The position numbers and the translations under genes are program-made. Shown in pieces: positions 3,504-14,885 of a stretch of 64,000 nt of DNA (its first letter is position 1; each line of letters opens with the position of its first letter). This DNA is from Orbus sasakiae. Lineage in GTDB: Bacteria > Pseudomonadota > Gammaproteobacteria > Enterobacterales > Orbaceae. The notes beneath the pieces are model-generated. The model was not told the origin of the DNA, did no database searches, and worked only from the letters and a program-made list of their open reading frames with translations. The stretch lies in NCBI RefSeq assembly GCF_039542345.1, contig NZ_BAABHY010000006.1, positions 28,292 through 92,291 of the forward strand, given 5' to 3'.

Positions 3504-5672
3504 TTAAAATGAGAATTCAAAATCATCAAATGTACTGATTTTTAACGGTTTTTTAGTGCTATTTTGTCTGTTCTGTGGTGAATTACAGACGATAAGATGC
3601 ACTCCATTTAAAGTGTTATCTAATTTTAAGTATTGGTTTTGACTGATTTTTATACTTTCTCGTAAATAAAGTCGATTTACAGCCAGATCATCATCTGGAA
3701 TACCGATTATTTTTAGCTGTTTTTTTATTTCTTCTCGCTGATCGTCCGCATCATCTTTAAAATTCTGCGTACAGTTATTGACAGAACTCCAAGGCGTGCG
3801 TTCCGCACGATTTTTAAGGTCAAGAGCCTTGCTTGTTTGGCCTTTTTGGATAATCTTACATTTTATTAACCTGGTGCAAATGTATGACGTTAGCCCGACG
3901 ATAGGGGAAAACACACCATTGATTTTTTTGATTGGCTCTTCATATTGGTTGAGTTGCTCTTCATAAGATAGGCGAACGGCTAGATCTTTGCGTTTTACCA
4001 TAGGTCCACCTTGATGGATAGTGTAAGCAGCCCAATCGCCGATATCGGCAGAAGCAAGAACAGGATCGATCACGCTTTCATCTACTGTTTTATCTTTGAG
4101 CCGGCGCAACTCTCGCCAAACAGTAACAGGCGCACCGCCTATTTGTTGAAATTGTCTAATCTTCCATCTGCTTGCCCATGCGGTAACGGCTTTTGCCATA
4201 TTCTTTAAGTTTTGACCAGATTCATTATCGACCGCATCATCAAGTGCATAACCATCAATATTTTTAGATATATATTTTGCTATGTAACCTGTGGCACTCC
4301 CTTTTTCTTTCTCAATCATTTTGAATTCAAAACGGTTTTTAGCGGCTCCTTTTTCGTGACCATCTTCATCCATGGCGTAGATCCACATAATTTTAAATGC
4401 TTTGCTGATATCTTCGGGACGCATAAAAACAAGAATATGCCAATGAGGTGTTCCGTCGTGATGTGGTTCGGCAACTCGAAAACCAAAAACTTTGATATCT
4501 TCACGGGATAGTTTTGCTCGGATTCGTGACCACACTTTACATAAATAGGCTTGAGTATCTTGAGGCGTATTACCAATCCAATTTTCAACAAAGCCACCTC
4601 TTGAATAAACACTGTGATATTTAGATGGGGCGGTTAAAGTAATAAAAGCGCCACAATAGCCAAACTCTTCAGCAATATCTTCAAAACCACGCATACGATT
4701 CATTAACTCAACTCGGCGAATAGCTGGATTAGCAATGGATTTGTAAACTTGTAAATCAAGTGGGATCTGCTCGCCAGTTTCCTCATTTTCGATTGCCATT
4801 CGTTCAAGGTATTTACGATTTCGGCGTTTTTGTTCGTTGAATTCGTTGATACATGAACGGCTTGCGTATGGGCTGGCTTTAGCTTGAACTTGACCAACAG
4901 CAATGGCTAAATGTTCTTTTTGAGTATCACGGCGACGTTGCAATTTATTACGCCACCAATCTTCATTGGTGACTTTTGCCCATGCTTTTATGATGTTTTC
5001 ATTGGTGAGTTTGTCATTTTTATAATCAGCATAGTAGGGCGGTGTAACATTGATTCCGTTTAACTCTTTCAAAATGAGTGAGTAAATTTTGTGTTCGATT
5101 GAATTTTGGTTCACTTCATTAGCTGAAAGAGAAAACGAACTTTCATCCAGTTTTTGAGTGATTAAGTTATTAATATGGCGAGCAATATCGACACTTAATT
5201 TATTAATGCTTTCACGCTCGTATGTTGGCAACTTTTCAAACTCGGCACCAAATACGATAGTCAACGAACTTGGCTTATCTGCTTCATATTTTTGATTTAA
5301 AAGATCAAGTCGACCTTTGATATTTCCGCCTAAGGTTTTGCGTAAAAAAGTATTCGCAGCACGGCGACTTTTCGACTGAAATAAATCAATATATTTATTG
5401 GTAAAATAACTACTTAAATAGTTTGGCAAATTGCCAATATAGTTAGATCTAAAGGCATGATCTTCGTGGTCAATATTCCACAGTTTTATTTCATTATAGG
5501 AAATATCATCAGGAATTCTTTTAGCTACAATTGGCTTTGCTGTTGGCGTTCTATCCACTTTTTTATTTGGTAAGAATCGCCCAACATTTTCATAATAATC
5601 ACGCATAGCCACAAACAAGGAATATTTATCCTTGTTTGAGATTAATGGTAATTGTTGCGTGAATGAGACCAT
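3504..5672 (-). CDS. Phage replication initiation endonuclease, P2 gpA family (rolling-circle HUH nuclease)
   Basis: 722 aa. Contains 'HHDGTPHWHILVF', the HUH-type motif typical of the P2 A / phiX174 A superfamily. Size and position match P2 gene A. Confidence 0.85.
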   Translation of the reverse strand: MVSFTQQLPLISNKDKYSLFVAMRDYYENVGRFLPNKKVDRTPTAKPIVAKRIPDDISYNEIKLWNIDHEDHAFRSNYIGNLPNYLSSYFTNKYIDLFQSKSRRAANTFLRKTLGGNIKGRLDLLNQKYEADKPSSLTIVFGAEFEKLPTYERESINKLSVDIARHINNLITQKLDESSFSLSANEVNQNSIEHKIYSLILKELNGINVTPPYYADYKNDKLTNENIIKAWAKVTNEDWWRNKLQRRRDTQKEHLAIAVGQVQAKASPYASRSCINEFNEQKRRNRKYLERMAIENEETGEQIPLDLQVYKSIANPAIRRVELMNRMRGFEDIAEEFGYCGAFITLTAPSKYHSVYSRGGFVENWIGNTPQDTQAYLCKVWSRIRAKLSREDIKVFGFRVAEPHHDGTPHWHILVFMRPEDISKAFKIMWIYAMDEDGHEKGAAKNRFEFKMIEKEKGSATGYIAKYISKNIDGYALDDAVDNESGQNLKNMAKAVTAWASRWKIRQFQQIGGAPVTVWRELRRLKDKTVDESVIDPVLASADIGDWAAYTIHQGGPMVKRKDLAVRLSYEEQLNQYEEPIKKINGVFSPIVGLTSYICTRLIKCKIIQKGQTSKALDLKNRAERTPWSSVNNCTQNFKDDADDQREEIKKQLKIIGIPDDDLAVNRLYLRESIKISQNQYLKLDNTLNGVHLIVCNSPQNRQNSTKKPLKISTFDDFEFSF

Positions 5673-5684
5673 AGCTAATGAACC

Positions 5685-6509
5685 CTAAACCATATCTGGC
5701 GTTAATACGCCTATAATTTCTTTGGCTTGTTCTCGGTTGCCATTGGCGGCGACAGATCGCCGTGCTTGGATTGAATAAATTTTAAATTGTCGGAATAGGT
5801 AACGGGTATCTGATGTATCGTGATTAGAGATCACAGCACATGCGCCACGTTTTACAGCTTTATAAAGGTGGTAAGCTAATTGTTCCGTTTCGTTATAATC
5901 AAAAGTTGATGGTGTATACCCGTTAAAGCTAACGTCACCACCTAACGGCAAATAAGGGGGATCACAATAAATTACATCACCATTACTAGCGTAGTTAACG
6001 GTGTTTTTATAATCACAGCGAAGCAGTTCAATTGAAAAAGGAATTTGATTCAGCTTTTCTGAAAAAAGCATTAATTCATTAGTAGGATTGTATATATTTT
6101 TATGTTTACCCTCTGGAACATTAAATTGACCACTTTTATTGTATCGGCATACACCATTAAAGCAGTGGCGATTTAAATAGATAAATAATGCAGCTCGTTT
6201 ATTTGTTTGAGATGAGTTATTAAATAATTCCCTTGCTTCATAATAATTAGGGTTTTGACTAAAATAGAAATCAACAAGCGAGATTAATTTTTGTGGCTCT
6301 GCTTTTAACCGGTTATAAACATTGATCAAATCCTGATTAATGTCCGCTAAAAGATACTGTTTATAATTGGTATTGATAAAAACATTACCGCCACCAACAA
6401 AAGGTTCAATCAACCGTTCGCCTTTTGGTAAATACTGCAATAATTGAGGAATAACTCGGCCTTTTCCGCCCATCCATTTAAGGAAAGAGCGATTTGTTTT
6501 AGTTTGCAT
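5685..6509 (-). CDS. dam: DNA adenine methyltransferase, Dam ortholog (D12 class)
   Basis: 'FLKWMGGKGRV...EPFVGGGNVF...NRHCFNGVCRYN...CDPPY' aligns with E. coli Dam motifs by eye. Confidence 0.85.
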   Translation of the reverse strand: MQTKTNRSFLKWMGGKGRVIPQLLQYLPKGERLIEPFVGGGNVFINTNYKQYLLADINQDLINVYNRLKAEPQKLISLVDFYFSQNPNYYEARELFNNSSQTNKRAALFIYLNRHCFNGVCRYNKSGQFNVPEGKHKNIYNPTNELMLFSEKLNQIPFSIELLRCDYKNTVNYASNGDVIYCDPPYLPLGGDVSFNGYTPSTFDYNETEQLAYHLYKAVKRGACAVISNHDTSDTRYLFRQFKIYSIQARRSVAANGNREQAKEIIGVLTPDMV

Positions 6510-6525
6510 TGTGAACCCTTAAAAC

Positions 6526-7326
6526 TTAATAGTTACTATCTTTTATCCAAATACATTCCTTACGGATGATTTGGCCTTTTTGACCTGCTGCGCGTGCTGG
6601 TGAAGTTCTTTTTTGCCAGACAAATAAATAGTCGTTATATAAATCGCAATCGTATCCAGAAATAACCACGCTTCCGGACAGATTATTTGCTGAAATTAAT
6701 AATTGTTCGTGGTCGTCAATTGCCATTTCGTATTGATAAACATTGGTTGATGTTCTTGTTTCGCTCATGTAGGGCGGATCTAAATAGAACAAGGTTTTTG
6801 GTGAATCGTGTTTTTGTAATAGTTCCAATGCCGGAATATTTTCTATAATCACGCCAGTTAAGCGTTGGCAAATAAATGCTAAGTTGTTAGGTATTTTTGC
6901 CCATACTGTTGCATCAGTGGTTTTGCCTTTTCTTGTGCTACCCGAAAAGCCAGTACAACCTTTAATGCAACCAGTTGAAGAAAAAGACATAAATGACCTA
7001 ACTAACATTCGGCGAGCCTGTTCAACTTGCTGCGAACCTAAACTATTACCGGCATCAAAATACTCACTGCGGTGAAATGGTGTTAATGCAACTAAATCAA
7101 TTAGTTGCTTGGAAAGAATCGGATCCCTTAATACCTTAAATAAATTGACAACATCATTATTAAGATCGTTATAAACCTCATTACCCAATCTTGGTTTTTG
7201 AAGTAATACGCCAGCAGCACCGCCAAAGGCTTCAACATAAATTTCATGTTTAGGAAAATGGCTAATAATCCAAGGGGCTAACCTAAATTTACCGCCAAAA
7301 TATCTTAATAATGGATGTTTGATCAT
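6526..7326 (-). CDS. Second N6-adenine DNA methyltransferase (D12 class, divergent from Dam)
   Basis: 'RYFGGKFRLAPWI...EAFGGAAGV' (motif I) and 'DPPY' (motif IV). Confidence 0.75.
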   Translation of the reverse strand: MIKHPLLRYFGGKFRLAPWIISHFPKHEIYVEAFGGAAGVLLQKPRLGNEVYNDLNNDVVNLFKVLRDPILSKQLIDLVALTPFHRSEYFDAGNSLGSQQVEQARRMLVRSFMSFSSTGCIKGCTGFSGSTRKGKTTDATVWAKIPNNLAFICQRLTGVIIENIPALELLQKHDSPKTLFYLDPPYMSETRTSTNVYQYEMAIDDHEQLLISANNLSGSVVISGYDCDLYNDYLFVWQKRTSPARAAGQKGQIIRKECIWIKDSNY

Positions 7327-7529
7327 TTTGTTAATCTTTCCTTAATTTGCTGACAATCAACACACAACTTACAGCCTTGTAGGAGTTGGCGGCGTTTTTC
7401 GGGAATGGGGTCGCCACACTCGAGGCAGTTAATTGCCGATTCGCCTACAAATACGGTTTGCCGTTTAACTAAAATGTTATCGATTTCTTGTTGTGCTAAA
7501 TCATTGGCACGGTCGATTGTGTCTCGCAT
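7323..7529 (-). CDS. TraR/DksA-family C4 zinc-finger protein (phage)
   Basis: 'CLECGDPIPEKRR...CKLCVDCQ' C4 arrangement. 68 aa. 4-nt overlap with the upstream gene. Confidence 0.7.
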   Translation of the reverse strand: MRDTIDRANDLAQQEIDNILVKRQTVFVGESAINCLECGDPIPEKRRQLLQGCKLCVDCQQIKERLTK

Positions 7530-7762
7530 TAGGCATGCGCCTCGTGCTTTTCGTTTTGCATTTTTGTGGCTTCTTGCTCTAAAAGTTCGGCTGCTTCATG
7601 TGGCGATAAAAAATTGATGCGGATGTGACCTGCTAAACGTTCTAAACGAGCGGAAAATACATCACATAAACCTTGTTTTGTTTCTGTTTTGGCTTGATTT
7701 AATGCCATTAGTAATGCATCACCTTCAAACCCATTAAGCGAAGTCATTGGATTGTTCGACAT
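7529..7762 (-). CDS. Phage hypothetical protein
   Basis: ATGA overlap with the downstream gene. Lies in the early operon. Confidence 0.45.
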   Translation of the reverse strand: MSNNPMTSLNGFEGDALLMALNQAKTETKQGLCDVFSARLERLAGHIRINFLSPHEAAELLEQEATKMQNEKHEAHA

Positions 7763-8162
7763 GATTAGCTCCTTTTGCTATGTGAGCGACAAGATCCGCT
7801 CGTTGTTGTAACTGGCGATGTAAATCGCAATTCATTTTTTTTGCTTCAATATGTACTTTTTGGAAATCTTCTTTTTTGCAGTTAACAAACTGATTAACAA
7901 TGATTTGTAATCGTTTAATGCCAACCGACAATTTTTTGACATCACTATCACTTAACTGTGACCAACTGGATTGGTCTGTCTCTAAGCCGGATGCAATTAA
8001 TAAATAGCGTTTTTGATTAGGTGATAAACGTTCAAAAGCCAAACGGGCCAAACTGCGATCATTAACAATCAGTTCTCGACATGCCCGAATATGTTCAAGG
8101 TTATTCATTCTTTGGGCTTTGGCTTGCGGTGTTTCTTGAATAGCCATAAAAATCACCTTCAC
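7734..8162 (-). CDS. Phage early protein, unknown function (in the position of a P2 B-like gene)
   Basis: 142 aa. Lies in the early operon between the Cox-like gene and gpA. Confidence 0.5.
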   Translation of the reverse strand: MKVIFMAIQETPQAKAQRMNNLEHIRACRELIVNDRSLARLAFERLSPNQKRYLLIASGLETDQSSWSQLSDSDVKKLSVGIKRLQIIVNQFVNCKKEDFQKVHIEAKKMNCDLHRQLQQRADLVAHIAKGANHVEQSNDFA

Positions 8163-8549: not shown

Positions 8550-8669
8550 AGTGCATTATTCCTAGTTAGATGATTTTATATGTTCAAATAGGTAAAATCT
8601 AAATTCAAGTTAAATATATTCTAAATTGAATTTAGAGTCAACGCCTTTTTATTAACTTTAGGTTTGATT
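8550..8669. promoter_or_regulatory. Immunity-switch intergenic region with repeated half-sites (putative operators)
   Basis: Half-site ctaaatt occurs twice direct (8600, 8621) and once inverted (8629-8635), forming a perfect 7+7 palindrome ctaaattGaatttag. AT-rich divergent promoters. Confidence 0.4.
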
Positions 8670-9029
8670 ATGAAAATTAATTTTGAAAGTGGTGGTGCGG
8701 AAGTTATAGATAGAATTATTAAGGCCTATGGTTTTAGGACAAAATTGGAATACAGTAATTATTTAGGCACATCTTCGGCTAATATGTCTGCACGTTATAA
8801 AAAAGGTTTTTTCCCTTCAGACTTAGTTGTCCGATGTATGGCCGAAACGGGCGCAACATTGGAATGGCTTGTTACTGGTGAGGGCGAGTTTTCACCAAAC
8901 GAACCAACCCCAAAAGAAACCGTTCTATCGGATGAAACACTGGAAAAACTTGAACGATTAGTCACCCTAAAAGAAAAGGGCGCAATAACCGAACAAGAGT
9001 TTAATGATCTTAAAGCTAAGTTGATTTGA
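8670..9029 (+). CDS. CI-type phage repressor with a C-terminal SHOCT-like domain
   Basis: The N-terminus resembles the Phage_CI_repr HTH. C-terminal 'LEKLERLVTLKEKGAITEQEFNDLKAKL' is a SHOCT-like motif. An AGGT RBS precedes ATG 8670; the track ORF starts at an upstream TTG. Confidence 0.65.
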   Translation: MKINFESGGAEVIDRIIKAYGFRTKLEYSNYLGTSSANMSARYKKGFFPSDLVVRCMAETGATLEWLVTGEGEFSPNEPTPKETVLSDETLEKLERLVTLKEKGAITEQEFNDLKAKLI

Positions 9030-9075
9030 TTATTATTTAGATAAAAATTATGGCCTAATAAAAAATGGATAACTA

Positions 9076-10173
9076 ATGAAAAAATTCGTATTTAAGAAAG
9101 ATAAAAAGCATTGGCTGAGGATGGTCGAAAAACGTAATGATAGAAGAAAAGAGTCAAAAAATGATAAGCATTTAAGCACAATAGGAAGCAAATCACTTTA
9201 TGCTAATTCCAAAAAACGTGAAAAAGTTATTATGCCTAAAATTGTAGCACCCAGGATAATGTTGCTAAAAGTTAGTGAATATTACAATCAATTTATTAAT
9301 TTCATTAACGACTTTGAAAGACTATGTAAAAAAGCTAATGAGTTAAAATTTAGATTTGAATTAGACTTGAGCCATATAAAAGAGATGTATGGAGATGCTT
9401 GTGTATTATTCATTGCATCAGTTGACAGCATGTATCAACTATATCCAAATTTAAAAATCAAAATAAGGAAGCCAATAAAAGACATTACCTCTCGATATGA
9501 TCCTCATGCCGTCTTTTGTCACCTTGGTTTTTATAAATTATTTGGCCTAGAATACTCAGCTGATTGTTCAAGTGAGAATGTAGTATGTTGGAGGTATGTA
9601 ACTGGTGATTTAGCTGATGGGCAATTAACAGAACCTTTGATGAAAACATTAAATGATATGGGAATTAATACAAAGGAATTATATAGAAGCTGTATTGAAG
9701 GTATTGCTAATGCTGTTGAGCATGCATATATTCCACAGATTAAGTCTTCTCGTGATGTTAGAAATAAAAAATGGTGGATGTTATTAGCTAAATTGGATGG
9801 TAAATTACTATTATTTGTTTATGATCGTGGGCATGGAATTCCATCTACTTTGGAGTACACCCAAGATCAAAAAATTCTAAAGGAAATATGGAAAAAACTA
9901 AAACAACTAGTATCACCAACAAAGGATTGCTTATATATTAAGGCCTCAATGTTAGTAAAAGAAACTAGAACTGAATTAAATTATAGAGGTAAAGGAACAG
10001 GAGACATAAAATCATTTATAGACAAAACTGAAGGTAATCTTTTGAGAATATACTCAAGTAGAGGCACAATGATTTATAAAGGTGAATCTACGCCATCATT
10101 TTGCTATGATAACTCCATATCTATTAATGGTACTCTATTGCAGTGGAGTATCAAATTGCAGGATACTATATGA
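9076..10173 (+). CDS. GHKL (HATPase_c) domain protein, SpoIIAB/RsbW-like Ser-kinase/ATPase fold in the C-terminal half
   Basis: N-box 'EGIANAVEHAY', G1 box 'YDRGHGIP', G2 box 'GKGTGD'. N-terminal ~190 aa unassigned. Confidence 0.55.
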   Translation: MKKFVFKKDKKHWLRMVEKRNDRRKESKNDKHLSTIGSKSLYANSKKREKVIMPKIVAPRIMLLKVSEYYNQFINFINDFERLCKKANELKFRFELDLSHIKEMYGDACVLFIASVDSMYQLYPNLKIKIRKPIKDITSRYDPHAVFCHLGFYKLFGLEYSADCSSENVVCWRYVTGDLADGQLTEPLMKTLNDMGINTKELYRSCIEGIANAVEHAYIPQIKSSRDVRNKKWWMLLAKLDGKLLLFVYDRGHGIPSTLEYTQDQKILKEIWKKLKQLVSPTKDCLYIKASMLVKETRTELNYRGKGTGDIKSFIDKTEGNLLRIYSSRGTMIYKGESTPSFCYDNSISINGTLLQWSIKLQDTI

Positions 10174-10496
10174 AAACTATTTATGTTAGAGATTTTACTA
10201 AATACCCTGGAGCAAGACTTAGGAAATTAGGTCCGGGCAGTGGCGAAGAGTTTAGAGATGATTTTCTTATTCCACAACTGGATGGTAAAAATATTCAGAT
10301 CAATTTTGATGGAACTATTGGTTATGGTTCTTCTTTTCTTGAAGAAGCTTTTGGAGGCTTGATAAGAAAAGGAATTGATAAAGAAATTGTTTTGCACCTT
10401 GTTGATACAGCGATCTCGGATGAAGATCCATTATTGAAGAAAGAACTACTCATTTATGTAACGGAAGCTATCGCCGTTAACAAAAAAGGTAAATGA
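10170..10496 (+). CDS. STAS-like (DUF4325-like) small protein, candidate partner of the GHKL protein
   Basis: ATGA overlap with the upstream gene. 'ARLRKLGPGSGEEFR...INFDG..GYGSSFLEEAFGGLIRKG' resembles the DUF4325/STAS pattern. Confidence 0.45.
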   Translation: MKTIYVRDFTKYPGARLRKLGPGSGEEFRDDFLIPQLDGKNIQINFDGTIGYGSSFLEEAFGGLIRKGIDKEIVLHLVDTAISDEDPLLKKELLIYVTEAIAVNKKGK

Positions 10497-10497
10497 T

Positions 10498-10929
10498 ATG
10501 ACTACATCTGATTGGATTTCATTATGTTCATTGTTTATCGCGTTAATTGGAGTTCCTTTAGGATATTATTTAGGTTGCAGAAGTGCAAGACATGCAGCAT
10601 ATAATGACATGATTGATACTTTGGAAAGCATAACTCAGACAACATTTAATCTATTTTTAGAAATTTATACCAAACAGTCTGTAAATGATATTAAAGATTA
10701 CCATTTGATGATTGCTTATTATAAAAAGATACAAAGACATTGTTCCGAACTGAGAACAATGAAAAAAATCGCAATGCATAACAAAATAGACAATTTGTTG
10801 ATAGAAGTTAAACAAATAATGACAGATAAATTATTTCATGCAAATGAAGCAATAAAACAAAACTCACTTAGTGAGTTAATAGTGAAAATGGATGAACTGA
10901 ACGCTTTATACACAAAACGTTTTTATTAA
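10498..10929 (+). CDS. Small membrane-anchored protein (1 N-terminal TM), third gene of the moron
   Basis: Start 1 nt after the upstream stop. N-terminal hydrophobic helix 'ISLCSLFIALIGVPLGYYLG'. Confidence 0.5.
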   Translation: MTTSDWISLCSLFIALIGVPLGYYLGCRSARHAAYNDMIDTLESITQTTFNLFLEIYTKQSVNDIKDYHLMIAYYKKIQRHCSELRTMKKIAMHNKIDNLLIEVKQIMTDKLFHANEAIKQNSLSELIVKMDELNALYTKRFY

Positions 10930-10979
10930 TTAAATTATTTTTTGTTATTTTACCGTTATAGAGACCTTTTCTATTATTA

Positions 10980-11999
10980 ATGACAGTACGCAAACAAAAA
11001 TCAGGTAAATGGTTATTTGAAAAATACCTTGATGGTGGTCGTAGAGTTCGTAAGACTTTTGCAACCAAAGGCGAGGCATTAGCTTATGAAAATTATTTAG
11101 AAGAACAAACCAACGAAAGGCCTTGGTTAGGTGAAAAGATTGATCGCCGGCGTATTTCTGATTTAATTGATACTTGGTTTAATTCTCATGGTAAAGCGCT
11201 TGATAATGGTGAAAAGGTAAAGGGTATTTTAACTTTTATCTGTGAGTGTATTAATAATCCGTTAGTTGATGATTTTACTGCTAAAACATTTACCAATTAC
11301 CGTAAAAAAAGAATGTCTGGCGAATTTTTCCGGACAGAAAAAAAGAAAACTGTATCACTAAACACCTTAAATAAAGAGTTAATCTATTTTAGGGCTGTTT
11401 TTAATGAATTGAAACGCCTTGGCGAATGGGATAAACCAAACCCACTAGAGAACATCAAAGTCTTTAAACTTGATGAAACAGAGATGGCATGGCTAACCCA
11501 CGAGCAGATAGATCATCTCTTAAAGGAATGTGCTAATAGCCAGGCAGAACATCTTTTACTTAAAGTACAAATTGGATTGTCAACTGGTGCCCGATGGGGT
11601 GAAATCAACAACCTTACGGGCTTAAATGCTATTGATAATAAAATTACTTATGTAAAAACCAAAGGCCGTAAAAATAGAACAATTCCTATATCGAAACAGT
11701 TATTTGATCGAATACCAAAAACACAAGGTAAGCTGTTCCCAGATGGCGATAATATTAGTGCATTCCGAAAAGCTTTAAATCGATGTAATATCTCTTTACC
11801 TGATGGACAACTAACACACGTTCTAAGACATACATTTGCAGCCCATTTTATGATGAATGGTGGCAATATTCTTGTATTACAAAAAATACTCGGACACCAA
11901 GATATAAAAGTCACTATGAGATATGCTCACTTTGCTCCAGATCACTTTGAGCAAGCGATTGAGTTGAACCCTTTGAATAAACAAAATATTAGCAGGTAA
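10980..11999 (+). CDS. int: Tyrosine integrase, P2 Int family
   Basis: 'LSTGARWGEI', 'HVLRHTFAAHFMMNGGNILVLQKILGH...MRYAHF' align with P2 Int catalytic motifs (R..HxxR..Y). Confidence 0.9.
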   Translation: MTVRKQKSGKWLFEKYLDGGRRVRKTFATKGEALAYENYLEEQTNERPWLGEKIDRRRISDLIDTWFNSHGKALDNGEKVKGILTFICECINNPLVDDFTAKTFTNYRKKRMSGEFFRTEKKKTVSLNTLNKELIYFRAVFNELKRLGEWDKPNPLENIKVFKLDETEMAWLTHEQIDHLLKECANSQAEHLLLKVQIGLSTGARWGEINNLTGLNAIDNKITYVKTKGRKNRTIPISKQLFDRIPKTQGKLFPDGDNISAFRKALNRCNISLPDGQLTHVLRHTFAAHFMMNGGNILVLQKILGHQDIKVTMRYAHFAPDHFEQAIELNPLNKQNISR

Positions 12000-12003
12000 C
12001 ATT

Positions 12004-12714
12004 ATGGATAAAACTTATAATATTTATTGTGATGAATCATGTCATTTAGAACATGATAACCAAACGGCAATGGTATTAGGTTCGGTATGGTGTCCATTCT
12101 CGAAAAGAGAGGAAATATCTAAGCGAATTAGAGAGATAAAGCAAAGAAATAATATGTCACCTCATTTTGAAATTAAGTGGACAAAAGTTAGTGAAGGTAA
12201 TTTACGTTTATACATGGATATTATTGACTATTTTTTTGACGATGATGATTTGTATTTTAGGGGCTTAGTGGTTCCAAATAAAAATGTTCTAGACCATGAA
12301 AAATTTAATCAAACGCATGATGAATGGTATTACAAAATGTACTTTTTATTATTGAAAATGATATTTGAACCATGCAATAAATATAATGTATATATTGATA
12401 TTAAAGATACCACTGGCAATACTAAAGTTATAAAATTACATAATATATTATGTAATAGTGCTTATGATTATTCACATAATATTATTCAAAAAATTCAAAG
12501 AATTCACTCCCACGAGTCTGAACAGTTACAAATAGCAGATCTTATTATTGGTGCTTTATCTTATCTATTTAGAGGGCTTGCAGATAATAAAGCCAAAGTA
12601 AAAATAATTGAAAGGATAAAACAACGTACACAATTAAGTTTAACAAAAAACACATTACCTAAAGCAAAAAAATTTAATCTTCTAATATGGGATAAAAAAG
12701 AGGGAGATGAATAA
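12004..12714 (+). CDS. DUF3800-like protein (cargo gene between int and att)
   Basis: N-terminal 'YNIYCDESCHLEHDN' and a later 'EQLQIADLIIG' resemble DUF3800 conserved motifs (recalled from memory, unverified). Confidence 0.45.
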   Translation: MDKTYNIYCDESCHLEHDNQTAMVLGSVWCPFSKREEISKRIREIKQRNNMSPHFEIKWTKVSEGNLRLYMDIIDYFFDDDDLYFRGLVVPNKNVLDHEKFNQTHDEWYYKMYFLLLKMIFEPCNKYNVYIDIKDTTGNTKVIKLHNILCNSAYDYSHNIIQKIQRIHSHESEQLQIADLIIGALSYLFRGLADNKAKVKIIERIKQRTQLSLTKNTLPKAKKFNLLIWDKKEGDE

Positions 12715-13190
12715 TGTCTGAATGGTTACCGCCTATAATTCCTAATAATGGCTACAACGATTGGAATCATTACTTTAATGCAATATATAAAGTATTTGAG
12801 CAAGATTTTGTTATAGATAGACCAGTATATAATGGTGTCCGGTTAGGATTGAAAAATCACCCCGAATATAATGGAAAATCTGCCACATTTTGGCATCTTA
12901 TCTCTGAGGGGAGCATTGAAGAAGAGCGATTACCTTGCACTTATAGATGCGAACGAATTACGTATCCTAAACCAATTATTGATAATAGTAATGATGGATG
13001 TTTAAAAATATGGACAGAATTACGAAAAGGAGAAAATAGAATTCATATATGGTATGAAGATGAAAATTACCTTGTTGTATTAGCGGAACGCAAAAAAGGT
13101 TACATATTACCATGGACCGCTTTTTATATAAAAGAAGAACATAGCAAAATAAAATATAATCGGAGATGGATGCAGTATAAAGATAAGTAA
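12714..13190 (+). CDS. Hypothetical protein, translationally coupled partner of the DUF3800-like gene
   Basis: The start overlaps the upstream stop (TAATG). 158 aa, no motif recognised. Confidence 0.5.
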   Translation: MSEWLPPIIPNNGYNDWNHYFNAIYKVFEQDFVIDRPVYNGVRLGLKNHPEYNGKSATFWHLISEGSIEEERLPCTYRCERITYPKPIIDNSNDGCLKIWTELRKGENRIHIWYEDENYLVVLAERKKGYILPWTAFYIKEEHSKIKYNRRWMQYKDK

Positions 13191-13745: not shown

Positions 13746-14885
13746 TTATCTGAATAAATTATCATACAAATTAGTTTTTTGAAGATTGTTATTTAACTCT
13801 TCAACTGAATTAATTATTTTATTTTTACAGGGATAATAAAATGAGCTATAAAATTGCCAAAAATTGATATCTGTATCACAAGTTTCCATATTCAGTATCA
13901 TGTCAAAATGGTGATTAATGTATTTTATTATCTCATTGAAAATGAAATCTGTAGTTTTATTGATATGCTCCCACTTTTTAGGTGGGGGAAGGTCTAGGAA
14001 GAATTTATCAGTTGTATCTATTATTTCTTTTATCACATCTTGTTGATCTTCCGTTATTAAAGCGTGGAACACAGTAATAGCTAATAGTTCAAAGAAACAA
14101 AAATACCGTTCAATATTTCCCCCTAAATTAATGTTTTCTTTATAGCTTTCTAATTTAGAATAAGAAGCACGATAATCGATAGATGTTGATATATTTTTTA
14201 TCAATAAATTATAAATAGGATAGTTATCAAACCTGTAACTTCCATATGAGGAAACCCGCTTTTCATAAATATTATCAATAATTTTATTTCCTATTTCCTC
14301 AATATAAGCAGAGGTCTTTTCTTTATATGTTTCTTTGAGATTATTATAAAAATTGATTCTTTCTGTTGAAGAAAATCGTTTTCGTAGAACTTCATCAATT
14401 TCAAAATTACTTTTTTTATCAGCTTTATTTTTTATGATATTGTTACTCATTTTGAATAATATTGCCGACGGTATTTTTAATATTTTATAGTCATGTTTTT
14501 CTAAAATCATATCTGTAGATGAAAACAATGGATTTAAAGATAAACAATATGATTTTGTATTTAAAATCCAGTAATCATGTTTAAAAAAACCACTATTGAT
14601 TAGTTTGTTTGTTACAACCTGTTTTTCTATTGAAAAATAAATTTCGGTTATATCGCTTAATTGTTCAATTTGCTCTAAGTAATCAGGATATTGCCTAAAT
14701 AGTGAATTTATCTCTTGCCACTCTTCTTTTTTTAGAAAATTGCTTAAGTGGAAACATTGATTGCTACAAAAGAATTTATTATTTGTTTTAAGCACTGCCC
14801 TGTTACAAAACTGACATTTTTTTTCGATGAAATCAGACGCTTTAACACGATTACGTTCCCAGTTTATATAATGAATCAAGCACAA
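13746..14885 (-). CDS. Hypothetical protein with an N-terminal Cys4 zinc-ribbon (orphan gene in the att-bounded islet)
   Basis: 379 aa. 'CQFCNRAV...CSNQCF'. Extremely AT-rich with Asn/Ile/Lys-rich codon usage. Confidence 0.55.
   Translation of the reverse strand: MCLIHYINWERNRVKASDFIEKKCQFCNRAVLKTNNKFFCSNQCFHLSNFLKKEEWQEINSLFRQYPDYLEQIEQLSDITEIYFSIEKQVVTNKLINSGFFKHDYWILNTKSYCLSLNPLFSSTDMILEKHDYKILKIPSAILFKMSNNIIKNKADKKSNFEIDEVLRKRFSSTERINFYNNLKETYKEKTSAYIEEIGNKIIDNIYEKRVSSYGSYRFDNYPIYNLLIKNISTSIDYRASYSKLESYKENINLGGNIERYFCFFELLAITVFHALITEDQQDVIKEIIDTTDKFFLDLPPPKKWEHINKTTDFIFNEIIKYINHHFDMILNMETCDTDINFWQFYSSFYYPCKNKIINSVEELNNNLQKTNLYDNLFR

Follow-up and report, generated by a model that had tools for sequence, protein, structure and literature searches.

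We describe here three open reading frames (ORFs), termed K, S and T, that lie between the C repressor gene and the integrase gene (int) of a P2-like prophage in Orbus sasakiae. The window, that is, the whole stretch of DNA analyzed, comprises 64,000 nucleotides (nt) of contig NZ_BAABHY010000006.1 (positions 28,292 to 92,291 of the forward strand), and its positions 1 to ~13,200 represent the early/immunity end of the prophage. The early operon is read leftward, and C, the three ORFs and the integrase form a rightward run (Table 1). The three genes are tightly coupled. The K stop codon and the S start codon share an ATGA overlap at 10170-10173, and a single base lies between the stop codon of S and the start codon of T. 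These coordinates and junctions confirm what a preliminary description of this DNA had reported for the trio.

On the + strand, neither the C-K interval nor the T-int interval contains a terminator-like hairpin. Sharing its strand with C and int and not cut off from either by such a site, the cassette is plausibly expressed in the lysogen, as the preliminary description proposed. For the C repressor the ORF listing gives a TTG start at 8664, and the ATG at 8670 is the likely start codon. No S24 autocleavage domain was detected in this P2-type repressor with Pfam. The G+C content of the C-to-int stretch (0.26-0.36) is slightly lower than that of the adjoining early genes, and a megablast search with window positions 8600-12000 against the phage collection returned no match.

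Table 1. Features of the prophage immunity region and its surroundings, in window positions
Feature	Position	Strand	Size or evidence
ORF placed like the gpA replication gene of a Gilliamella relative (position only)	3504-5672	-	722 amino acids
C repressor, P2-type	8670-9029	+	Phage_CI_repr PF07022, E 4.2e-20; SHOCT tail PF09851, E 7.4e-06
Gene K, STAS-GHKL serine-kinase-like, presumed sensor and kinase	9076-10173	+	365 amino acids
K residues 1-52, highly basic N-terminal helix, net charge +13	9076-9231	+	AlphaFold2 (AF2) helix at residues 6-33
K residues ~55-175, STAS-like alpha/beta domain	9238-9600	+	
K residues ~195-362, GHKL ATP-binding/kinase domain	9658-10161	+	Motif boxes, structure comparison
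Gene S, DUF4325/STAS-like, presumed kinase substrate and antitoxin	10170-10496	+	108 amino acids from ATG; PF14213
S Ser55 codon, G-S-S-F motif, predicted phospho-acceptor	10332-10334	+	Invariant in 81 sequences
Gene T, one N-terminal transmembrane helix, presumed membrane effector/toxin	10498-10929	+	143 amino acids
Tyrosine integrase, P2-type; downstream edge of the C-int cargo slot	10980-11999	+	PF24624, E 5.7e-33; PF00589, E 5.1e-22
PDC-M04 gene A (DUF3800)	12004-12714	+	PADLOC, E 1.4e-95
PDC-M04 gene B	12714-13190	+	PADLOC, E 2.6e-62

Domain architecture of the three proteins

The K protein is 100% identical to hypothetical protein GCM10023211_21670. Fourteen homologues at 27-54% identity align with it from Met1 to the C-terminus. 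An exhaustive profile search returned 3268 representatives with an E-value of 1e-3 or lower, and 714 clusters (at 50% identity) with one of 1e-30 or lower. Most are 340-390 amino acids long and match over their full length. Because full-length homologues exist at such identities and the family is large, we regard the three genes as real.

The preliminary description assigned K to the SpoIIAB/RsbW type of GHKL proteins on the basis of three motifs, EGIANAVEHAY, DRGHGIP and GKGTG. All three are present, and they fall on invariant columns of the alignment with the 14 homologues. The invariant residues are E208, N212 and H216 in the N box, D250-x-G252-x-G254 in the G1 box and R304-G305-K306-G307 in the G2 box, in addition to G352-T353 in the G3 box. 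K thus carries the N box (E...N...H), G1 (DxGxG) and G2 (GxG) that characterize a Bergerat fold, and structure comparison finds its closest matches in RsbW and SpoIIAB. The profile searches proposed in the preliminary description, for HATPase_c and DUF4325, were successful for S, which matches DUF4325. K alone has no match in Pfam, NCBIfam or PADLOC, and PF13581 (HATPase_c_2) is present in one distant homologue. The GHKL assignment is therefore based on the motifs, the PF13581 homologue and structure comparison. From these features K is placed in the anti-sigma Ser-kinase branch (SpoIIAB/RsbW) of the GHKL superfamily, and it is predicted to have kinase activity.

Other searches are in keeping with this placement or add little to it. 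The 14-sequence K profile has weak GHKL matches among PDB sequences (E 0.16-0.9) that are consistent with a GHKL protein but not significant alone. Searched against PDB as a single sequence, K yielded chance matches only, such as alpha-Rep and RAD50. A fold search of BFVD returned little besides phage HATPase and DUF4325 proteins, and the sole PHROG match is PHROG 3364 (E 5.8e-49), for which no function is annotated.

The preliminary description noted an unassigned N-terminal domain of ~190 amino acids in K. This region is present. However, it can be resolved into a basic helix (residues 1-52) and a STAS-like domain (residues ~55-175). The helix is retained from M1 in the homologues with a near-invariant R23, and the median charge of residues 1-50 across the family is +13. 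It is possible that the helix is a nucleic-acid-binding extension. The STAS-like domain contains a near-invariant A108 that aligns with A59 of VapK, a kinase considered below. A108 appears to occupy the position held by the phospho-serine in substrate STAS domains. If so, the internal STAS domain of K would not itself be a substrate.

At three of the related loci a frameshift or stop codon divides the K gene into two ORFs (L025, 5998-7048; L067, 5743-6910; L088, 371-1510). S is intact in all three, as is T where the contig reaches it. Were K to activate a toxin-antitoxin pair, the loss of an intact K would be tolerated, but sequencing error could equally explain the split.

The second protein, S, matches Pfam PF14213 (DUF4325, STAS-like) with an E-value of 1.8e-13 (50.4 bits against a gathering cut-off of 23) over profile positions 1-61 of 64, in agreement with the STAS/DUF4325-type fold first suggested for it. 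It consists of a STAS domain along with a short helix, and lacks a DNA-binding domain. In an alignment of 81 sequences P13, R16, G25, G53, S55, F56, E59 and F61 are invariant, and the core motif reads G-Y-G-S-S-F-L-E-E-x-F-G-G. The Ser/Thr at the N-terminus of helix 2 is the phospho-acceptor of SpoIIAA, CapS and VapS. Ser55 is the conserved serine at the corresponding position of S and, judged from the sequence, the predicted phospho-acceptor. It aligns with S48 of VapS, S54 of CapS and the GSSF segment of the STAS protein 3t6o. This segment is also the best PDB match of the 81-sequence profile, although the match is weak (E 0.13), and the VapS and CapS chains were not retrieved from PDB by either S or its profile.

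The third protein, T, contains a hydrophobic helix at residues ~6-25 (nt 10513-10572) followed by basic residues. Hydropathy analysis shows exactly one hydrophobic segment, near the N-terminus, in 72 of 82 T family members, which supports the single transmembrane helix of the preliminary description. The family is diverse, with a mean column identity of 18%. A homologue search with the single sequence found only T itself, and a profile search found 18 proteins, mostly from a distant Pseudomonas-type subgroup. T has no match in Pfam, NCBIfam or PADLOC, the T profile has only non-significant helical-bundle matches in PDB, and the sole PHROG match (phrog_34946, E 1.6e-32) has no annotated function. 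An AF2 model from an 18-sequence alignment is all-helical, with the transmembrane helix and four more helices. Its predicted local distance difference test (pLDDT) score is only 53, and the model was therefore not used for fold comparison. Thr109 (nt 10822-10824) is 94% conserved within an L-[R/K]-x3-T-D motif and may be a phospho-site, part of an interface or have another role.

Occurrence and genomic setting of the cassette

Pattern-plus-tblastn scans with the K alignment identified 72 loci in IMG/VR and 27 in GTDB species genomes. Hidden Markov models for K, S and T were built in iterative rounds from the copies of the window, Gilliamella and the lambdoid phages, and co-occurrence was counted at 107 loci. 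In 105 of these S is the next gene after K, and in 100 the gene directly after S is a T homologue; the junctions are mostly overlaps or gaps of less than 10 nt. Contig ends explain four exceptions (L025, L035, L066 and L099). In the three most distant exceptions (L094, L105 and L106) the third gene is an ORF of 121-167 amino acids with an N-terminal hydrophobic helix. This co-occurrence analysis, which the preliminary description had proposed, establishes K-S-T as one unit that occurs with strict co-occurrence at ~100 loci.

The hosts include Orbaceae (Orbus, Gilliamella), Pasteurellaceae (Haemophilus, Aggregatibacter, Gallibacterium, Volucribacter), Pseudoalteromonas, Pseudomonas, Enterovibrio, Lysobacterales, Acetobacteraceae and Betaproteobacteria (Massilia, Methylotenera, Rhodocyclaceae). 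The trio is also found in a Flavobacteriales genome and in Campylobacterota. No sigma factor gene is linked to the trio in the window or in the ~100 related loci.

The gene directly upstream of K is frequently a phage repressor. Among 80 such neighbors, 29 match Peptidase_S24, 11 Phage_CI_repr, 6 Phage_CI_C and 22 HTH_3 (the counts may overlap), from which we estimate that roughly half of the cassettes lie directly behind a phage repressor. Many of the 80 have no repressor-type match. In lambdoid phages the trio directly follows CI (HTH_3 plus Peptidase_S24) and is opposite cro, a slot that we take to be the rexAB position of lambda. The cultured Marinobacter phage AS1 has the order Cro, CI-like, K, S and T, all annotated as hypothetical. 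In the gene table of Francisella phage KIRK, CI is followed by a hypothetical protein of 293 amino acids, a DUF4325 protein of 112 and a transmembrane protein of 125 (PMC7924643).

The P2-like prophages of Gilliamella have the order C, a WYL+BRCT protein of 414 amino acids, an ORF of 137 amino acids, K-S-T and int; in one of them (L001) the two extra genes occupy 6200-7444 and 7530-7943. The WYL and BRCT matches are weak (E ~1e-4). WYL proteins are regulators of defense operons that respond to single-stranded DNA (ssDNA), and the Gilliamella gene could therefore provide a second regulatory layer.

To place the C-int interval among its relatives, we compared P2-like loci drawn from 431 integrase relatives in IMG/VR. 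The comparison set comprises 79 loci with an integrase 54-68% identical to that of the window, all of which have a C-type repressor upstream and on the same strand as int. In this set C and int are 0 to 3.8 kb apart. C abuts int (gap <=25 nt) in 27 loci, the gap measures 240-443 nt in 15, and it is 1.0-3.8 kb in the remaining 37. K-S-T occupies the gap in a single locus (L122, a Gilliamella phage). The insertions found elsewhere include PDC-S20/KAP NTPase, bSEFIR, PifA-like, HEC-01A, AbiLi, PIN_8 and Schlafen-like proteins as well as AriA/GajA/OLD-like ATPases. As these are known or candidate defense genes, the C-int gap constitutes a defense hotspot, and the interval between integrase and primase of P2 has been described as a minor one (PMC13586616). 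The trio is also present on the unrelated backbones of lambdoid phages, Marinobacter phage AS1 and Francisella phage KIRK. Rare at this site in relatives and present on unrelated phages, K-S-T is variable cargo and not part of the phage core, as the preliminary description had supposed.

A second cargo module follows the integrase. PDC-M04, a two-gene candidate defense system, begins 4 nt past the int stop codon, at a position that corresponds to the minor 'integrase-att' hotspot known from P2-like phages. With the C-int slot and the integrase-att slot both filled, this end of the prophage carries two cargo modules back to back. A gene of 226 amino acids that follows int in Gilliamella was tested as a relative of PDC-M04A and is not related. 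Just past PDC-M04, an ORF of 379 amino acids (13746-14885, - strand) lies in a very AT-rich stretch (G+C 0.23-0.30) and may be further cargo or mark the junction of prophage and chromosome. Within the early operon, two adjacent ORFs on the - strand (5685-6509 and 6526-7326) each have a DPPY motif, as is characteristic of N6-adenine/N4-cytosine DNA methyltransferases. In the Gilliamella relative this position is taken by one MethyltransfD12 gene.

Proposed function and alternative readings

Two kinase-STAS systems described recently are the closest to K-S-T. CapK, an ssDNA-activated kinase with a helix-turn-helix (HTH), STAS and GHKL architecture, phosphorylates Ser54 of CapS, a transcriptional repressor composed of a STAS domain and a winged HTH (wHTH), and thereby de-represses immune operons (Chambers et al., EMBO J 2026, PMC13373217). 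The pair is a DNA-damage-responsive transcription switch located upstream of an immune operon (CBASS, Bub and others) that is separate from it (PMC13373217). VapKSC consists of VapK (STAS-GHKL), the antitoxin VapS (STAS plus a short C-terminal helix) and the PIN toxin VapC. It protects E. coli from phage Bas42 through an ssDNA-linked kinase that frees the toxin from VapS (PMC13373217).

We compared K and S with the VapK, VapS, CapK and CapS sequences in the supplementary files of PMC13373217. Using hhalign with an 86-sequence K alignment, K matches VapK with a probability of 93.3 (E 2.6e-7, 242 columns, ~15% identity) and CapK with a probability of 95.3 (E 2.2e-8, 251 columns), compared with E-values of 0.37 and 0.58 for reversed-sequence controls. 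Both matches are collinear over the STAS and GHKL domains. By this profile comparison the homology of K to CapK and VapK is distant but significant. VapS is a DUF4325 protein (E 2.7e-17), and S and VapS therefore share one Pfam family.

On this basis K-S-T is probably an unnamed, membrane-effector relative of the VapKSC anti-phage toxin-antitoxin system. We lean toward the view that it is a prophage-borne, lysogen-expressed and kinase-gated defense cassette of toxin-antitoxin type that acts by abortive infection or superinfection exclusion. The position close to the repressor, on the same strand and free of terminators, the defense hotspot and the occurrence on unrelated backbones all point to a lysogen-expressed anti-phage function. 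In the resting lysogen the trio would be transcribed with the repressor and translationally coupled, and S, by analogy with VapKSC, would keep the inner-membrane protein T inactive. A cue from phage infection or DNA damage, ssDNA if CapK and VapK are a guide, would activate K. Active K would then phosphorylate S at Ser55, phosphorylated S would let T go, and free T would damage or depolarize the membrane, such that the infected cell or the incoming phage is stopped. We infer each of these elements, namely the phosphorylation of S by K, the binding of T by S, the toxicity of T, the trigger and the phage-defense outcome, from gene content and analogy.

Several observations weigh against this proposal. 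T has no detectable homology to a toxin, pore or holin in Pfam, NCBIfam, PADLOC or PDB, and its structure model is poor (pLDDT 53). K, S and T have no match in PADLOC-DB v2 at E <= 1, and the adjoining PDC-M04 scores strongly in the same search. The profile alignment of S with VapS is weak (E 0.006, probability 6%) and that of S with CapS is no better than the reversed control, although Ser55 is placed on VapS S48 and CapS S54, respectively. The aromatic residue that contacts ssDNA (W68 in CapK, F54 in VapK) cannot be mapped to a conserved residue of K. The VapK F54 column corresponds to Glu103 of K in the hhalign alignment, the nearby Tyr105 is conserved in close relatives only, and CapK W68 lies outside the aligned region. 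The trigger is therefore one that we infer. Finally, in a classical partner switch it is the kinase and not the STAS protein that binds the output protein, so T may be bound by K directly.

An unlikely alternative, though the best of those considered, is that T is a constitutive superinfection-exclusion (Sie) protein of the inner membrane that blocks DNA entry by incoming phages in the manner of Sie/Imm, with K and S only tuning it and no killing involved. Small membrane proteins expressed in the lysogen from a gene next to the repressor represent the classical Sie arrangement, and the single N-terminal transmembrane helix of T, followed by basic residues, would fit such a protein. However, a kinase and a STAS protein as obligatory partners would be superfluous for a simple Sie protein, and the three genes nonetheless occur together at essentially every locus. 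In addition VapKSC, the only characterized relative, works through toxin release.

Slightly less probable still is a role in the life cycle of the prophage itself, in which K would sense DNA damage (ssDNA) and act through S on the lysis-lysogeny decision, induction or lysis timing. T would then be a membrane anchor or a holin-like timing factor, and the cassette would supply a damage input to P2-type repressors that are not SOS-inducible. That the trio adjoins the repressor in about half of the loci, P2-like and lambdoid alike, is consistent with this idea, as are the absence of an S24 autocleavage domain from the C repressor here and the damage-responsive transcription switch formed by the related CapK and CapS. 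However, S (108 amino acids) has no DNA-binding domain, unlike the STAS-wHTH protein CapS, and the trio is also found beside self-cleaving S24-type repressors that need no added damage input. The many upstream neighbors with no repressor-type match also argue against a role tied to the repressor, as does the absence of the trio from 78 of 79 sister phages, in which the slot, where filled, has defense genes.

A classical partner switch acting on a sigma factor or host transcription as a form of lysogenic conversion, with K as anti-sigma factor and S as antagonist, is suggested by the solved structures closest to K, which are the anti-sigma factors RsbW and SpoIIAB, and by the fold class of S, that of anti-sigma-factor antagonists, but we reject it as very improbable because none of the loci has a linked sigma factor gene. 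The constant third partner is instead a small transmembrane protein. In addition, neither SpoIIAB nor RsbW has the STAS domain or the basic helix of K, and CapK and VapK, which also carry a STAS domain, do not regulate sigma factors. The term partner-switch-like, used in the preliminary description, is fair for the K-S pair. The cassette, however, involves no sigma factor, and its characterized relatives are kinase-substrate release switches and not classical partner switches of a sigma factor.

No alternative accommodates both the strict co-occurrence of K, S and T and the hotspot context as well as a defense function does. Going a step further, we tentatively suggest that K-S-T is a functional equivalent of RexAB, widespread and phage-borne, that acts by phosphorylation-gated release of a new class of single-pass, membrane-depolarizing effector. 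In this form, and with equal reserve, it might pair a nucleic-acid-sensing kinase with expression from the immunity operons of P2-like, lambdoid and other temperate phages in several phyla. If this is true, T represents a new membrane-toxin family, and serine phosphorylation of a STAS antitoxin is a general, effector-swappable trigger of prophage abortive infection.

The kinase-STAS pair was tied to phage defense only in 2026, and its known outputs so far are the CapS repressor and the VapC PIN toxin. K-S-T would extend these outputs to a third, namely a small membrane protein from an uncharacterized family. It would also mean that the trigger pair is portable, a module inserted by temperate phages into their immunity operons. 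Effector swapping is already a familiar theme; should T prove to be a membrane toxin, it would define an effector class that is new and add a further exclusion strategy of the Rex type. Because the trio occurs in cultured phages (Marinobacter AS1, Francisella KIRK), the family is directly testable.

Comparison with known systems

The cassette is unnamed in the Pfam, NCBIfam, PADLOC v2 and PHROG annotations, and a literature search found no description of a kinase-STAS-transmembrane system. The preliminary description could match it to no named system. The cassette itself is indeed undescribed. However, VapKSC and CapKS (PMC13373217) can be named as its closest counterparts, and K-S-T would be an effector variant of them.

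Like VapKSC, K-S-T has a three-gene order of kinase, STAS protein of ~110 amino acids with a short C-terminal helix, and effector, and both are linked to phage defense by genomic context. In contrast to the PIN nuclease of VapKSC, the third gene here encodes a helical protein of ~140-170 amino acids with a single transmembrane segment. As T has no PIN match, K-S-T is not a strict member of VapKSC but an architectural relative only. K also has an extra basic N-terminal helix of ~50 amino acids that VapK (302 amino acids) lacks. The K-S-T family is mostly phage-borne and located behind repressor genes, unlike VapKSC.

With CapK-CapS the cassette shares the STAS-GHKL kinase core, an extension of the kinase N-terminal to the STAS domain, and a substrate STAS protein with a D/G-S-S-F phospho-acceptor motif. 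However, the CapK extension is an HTH and that of K is a single basic helix, CapS has a wHTH whereas S has no DNA-binding domain, and the only downstream partner of K and S is T rather than a separate immune operon.

SpoIIAB-SpoIIAA and RsbW-RsbV provide the best structural matches of the kinase domain and, as here, have a substrate of the STAS fold whose helix 2 has a serine at its start. K is more than twice as long as these kinases and has its own STAS domain, and the output is a membrane protein with no sigma factor involved.

The likeness to lambda RexA-RexB is one of position and function only. In lambdoid phages the trio is directly downstream of CI on the same strand, and both systems combine cytoplasmic sensor components with a membrane protein. 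There is no relationship in sequence or fold. RexB is polytopic whereas T has one transmembrane helix, and the gating of a membrane protein by a kinase and a STAS protein, as proposed here, would set K-S-T apart from Rex, which has neither.

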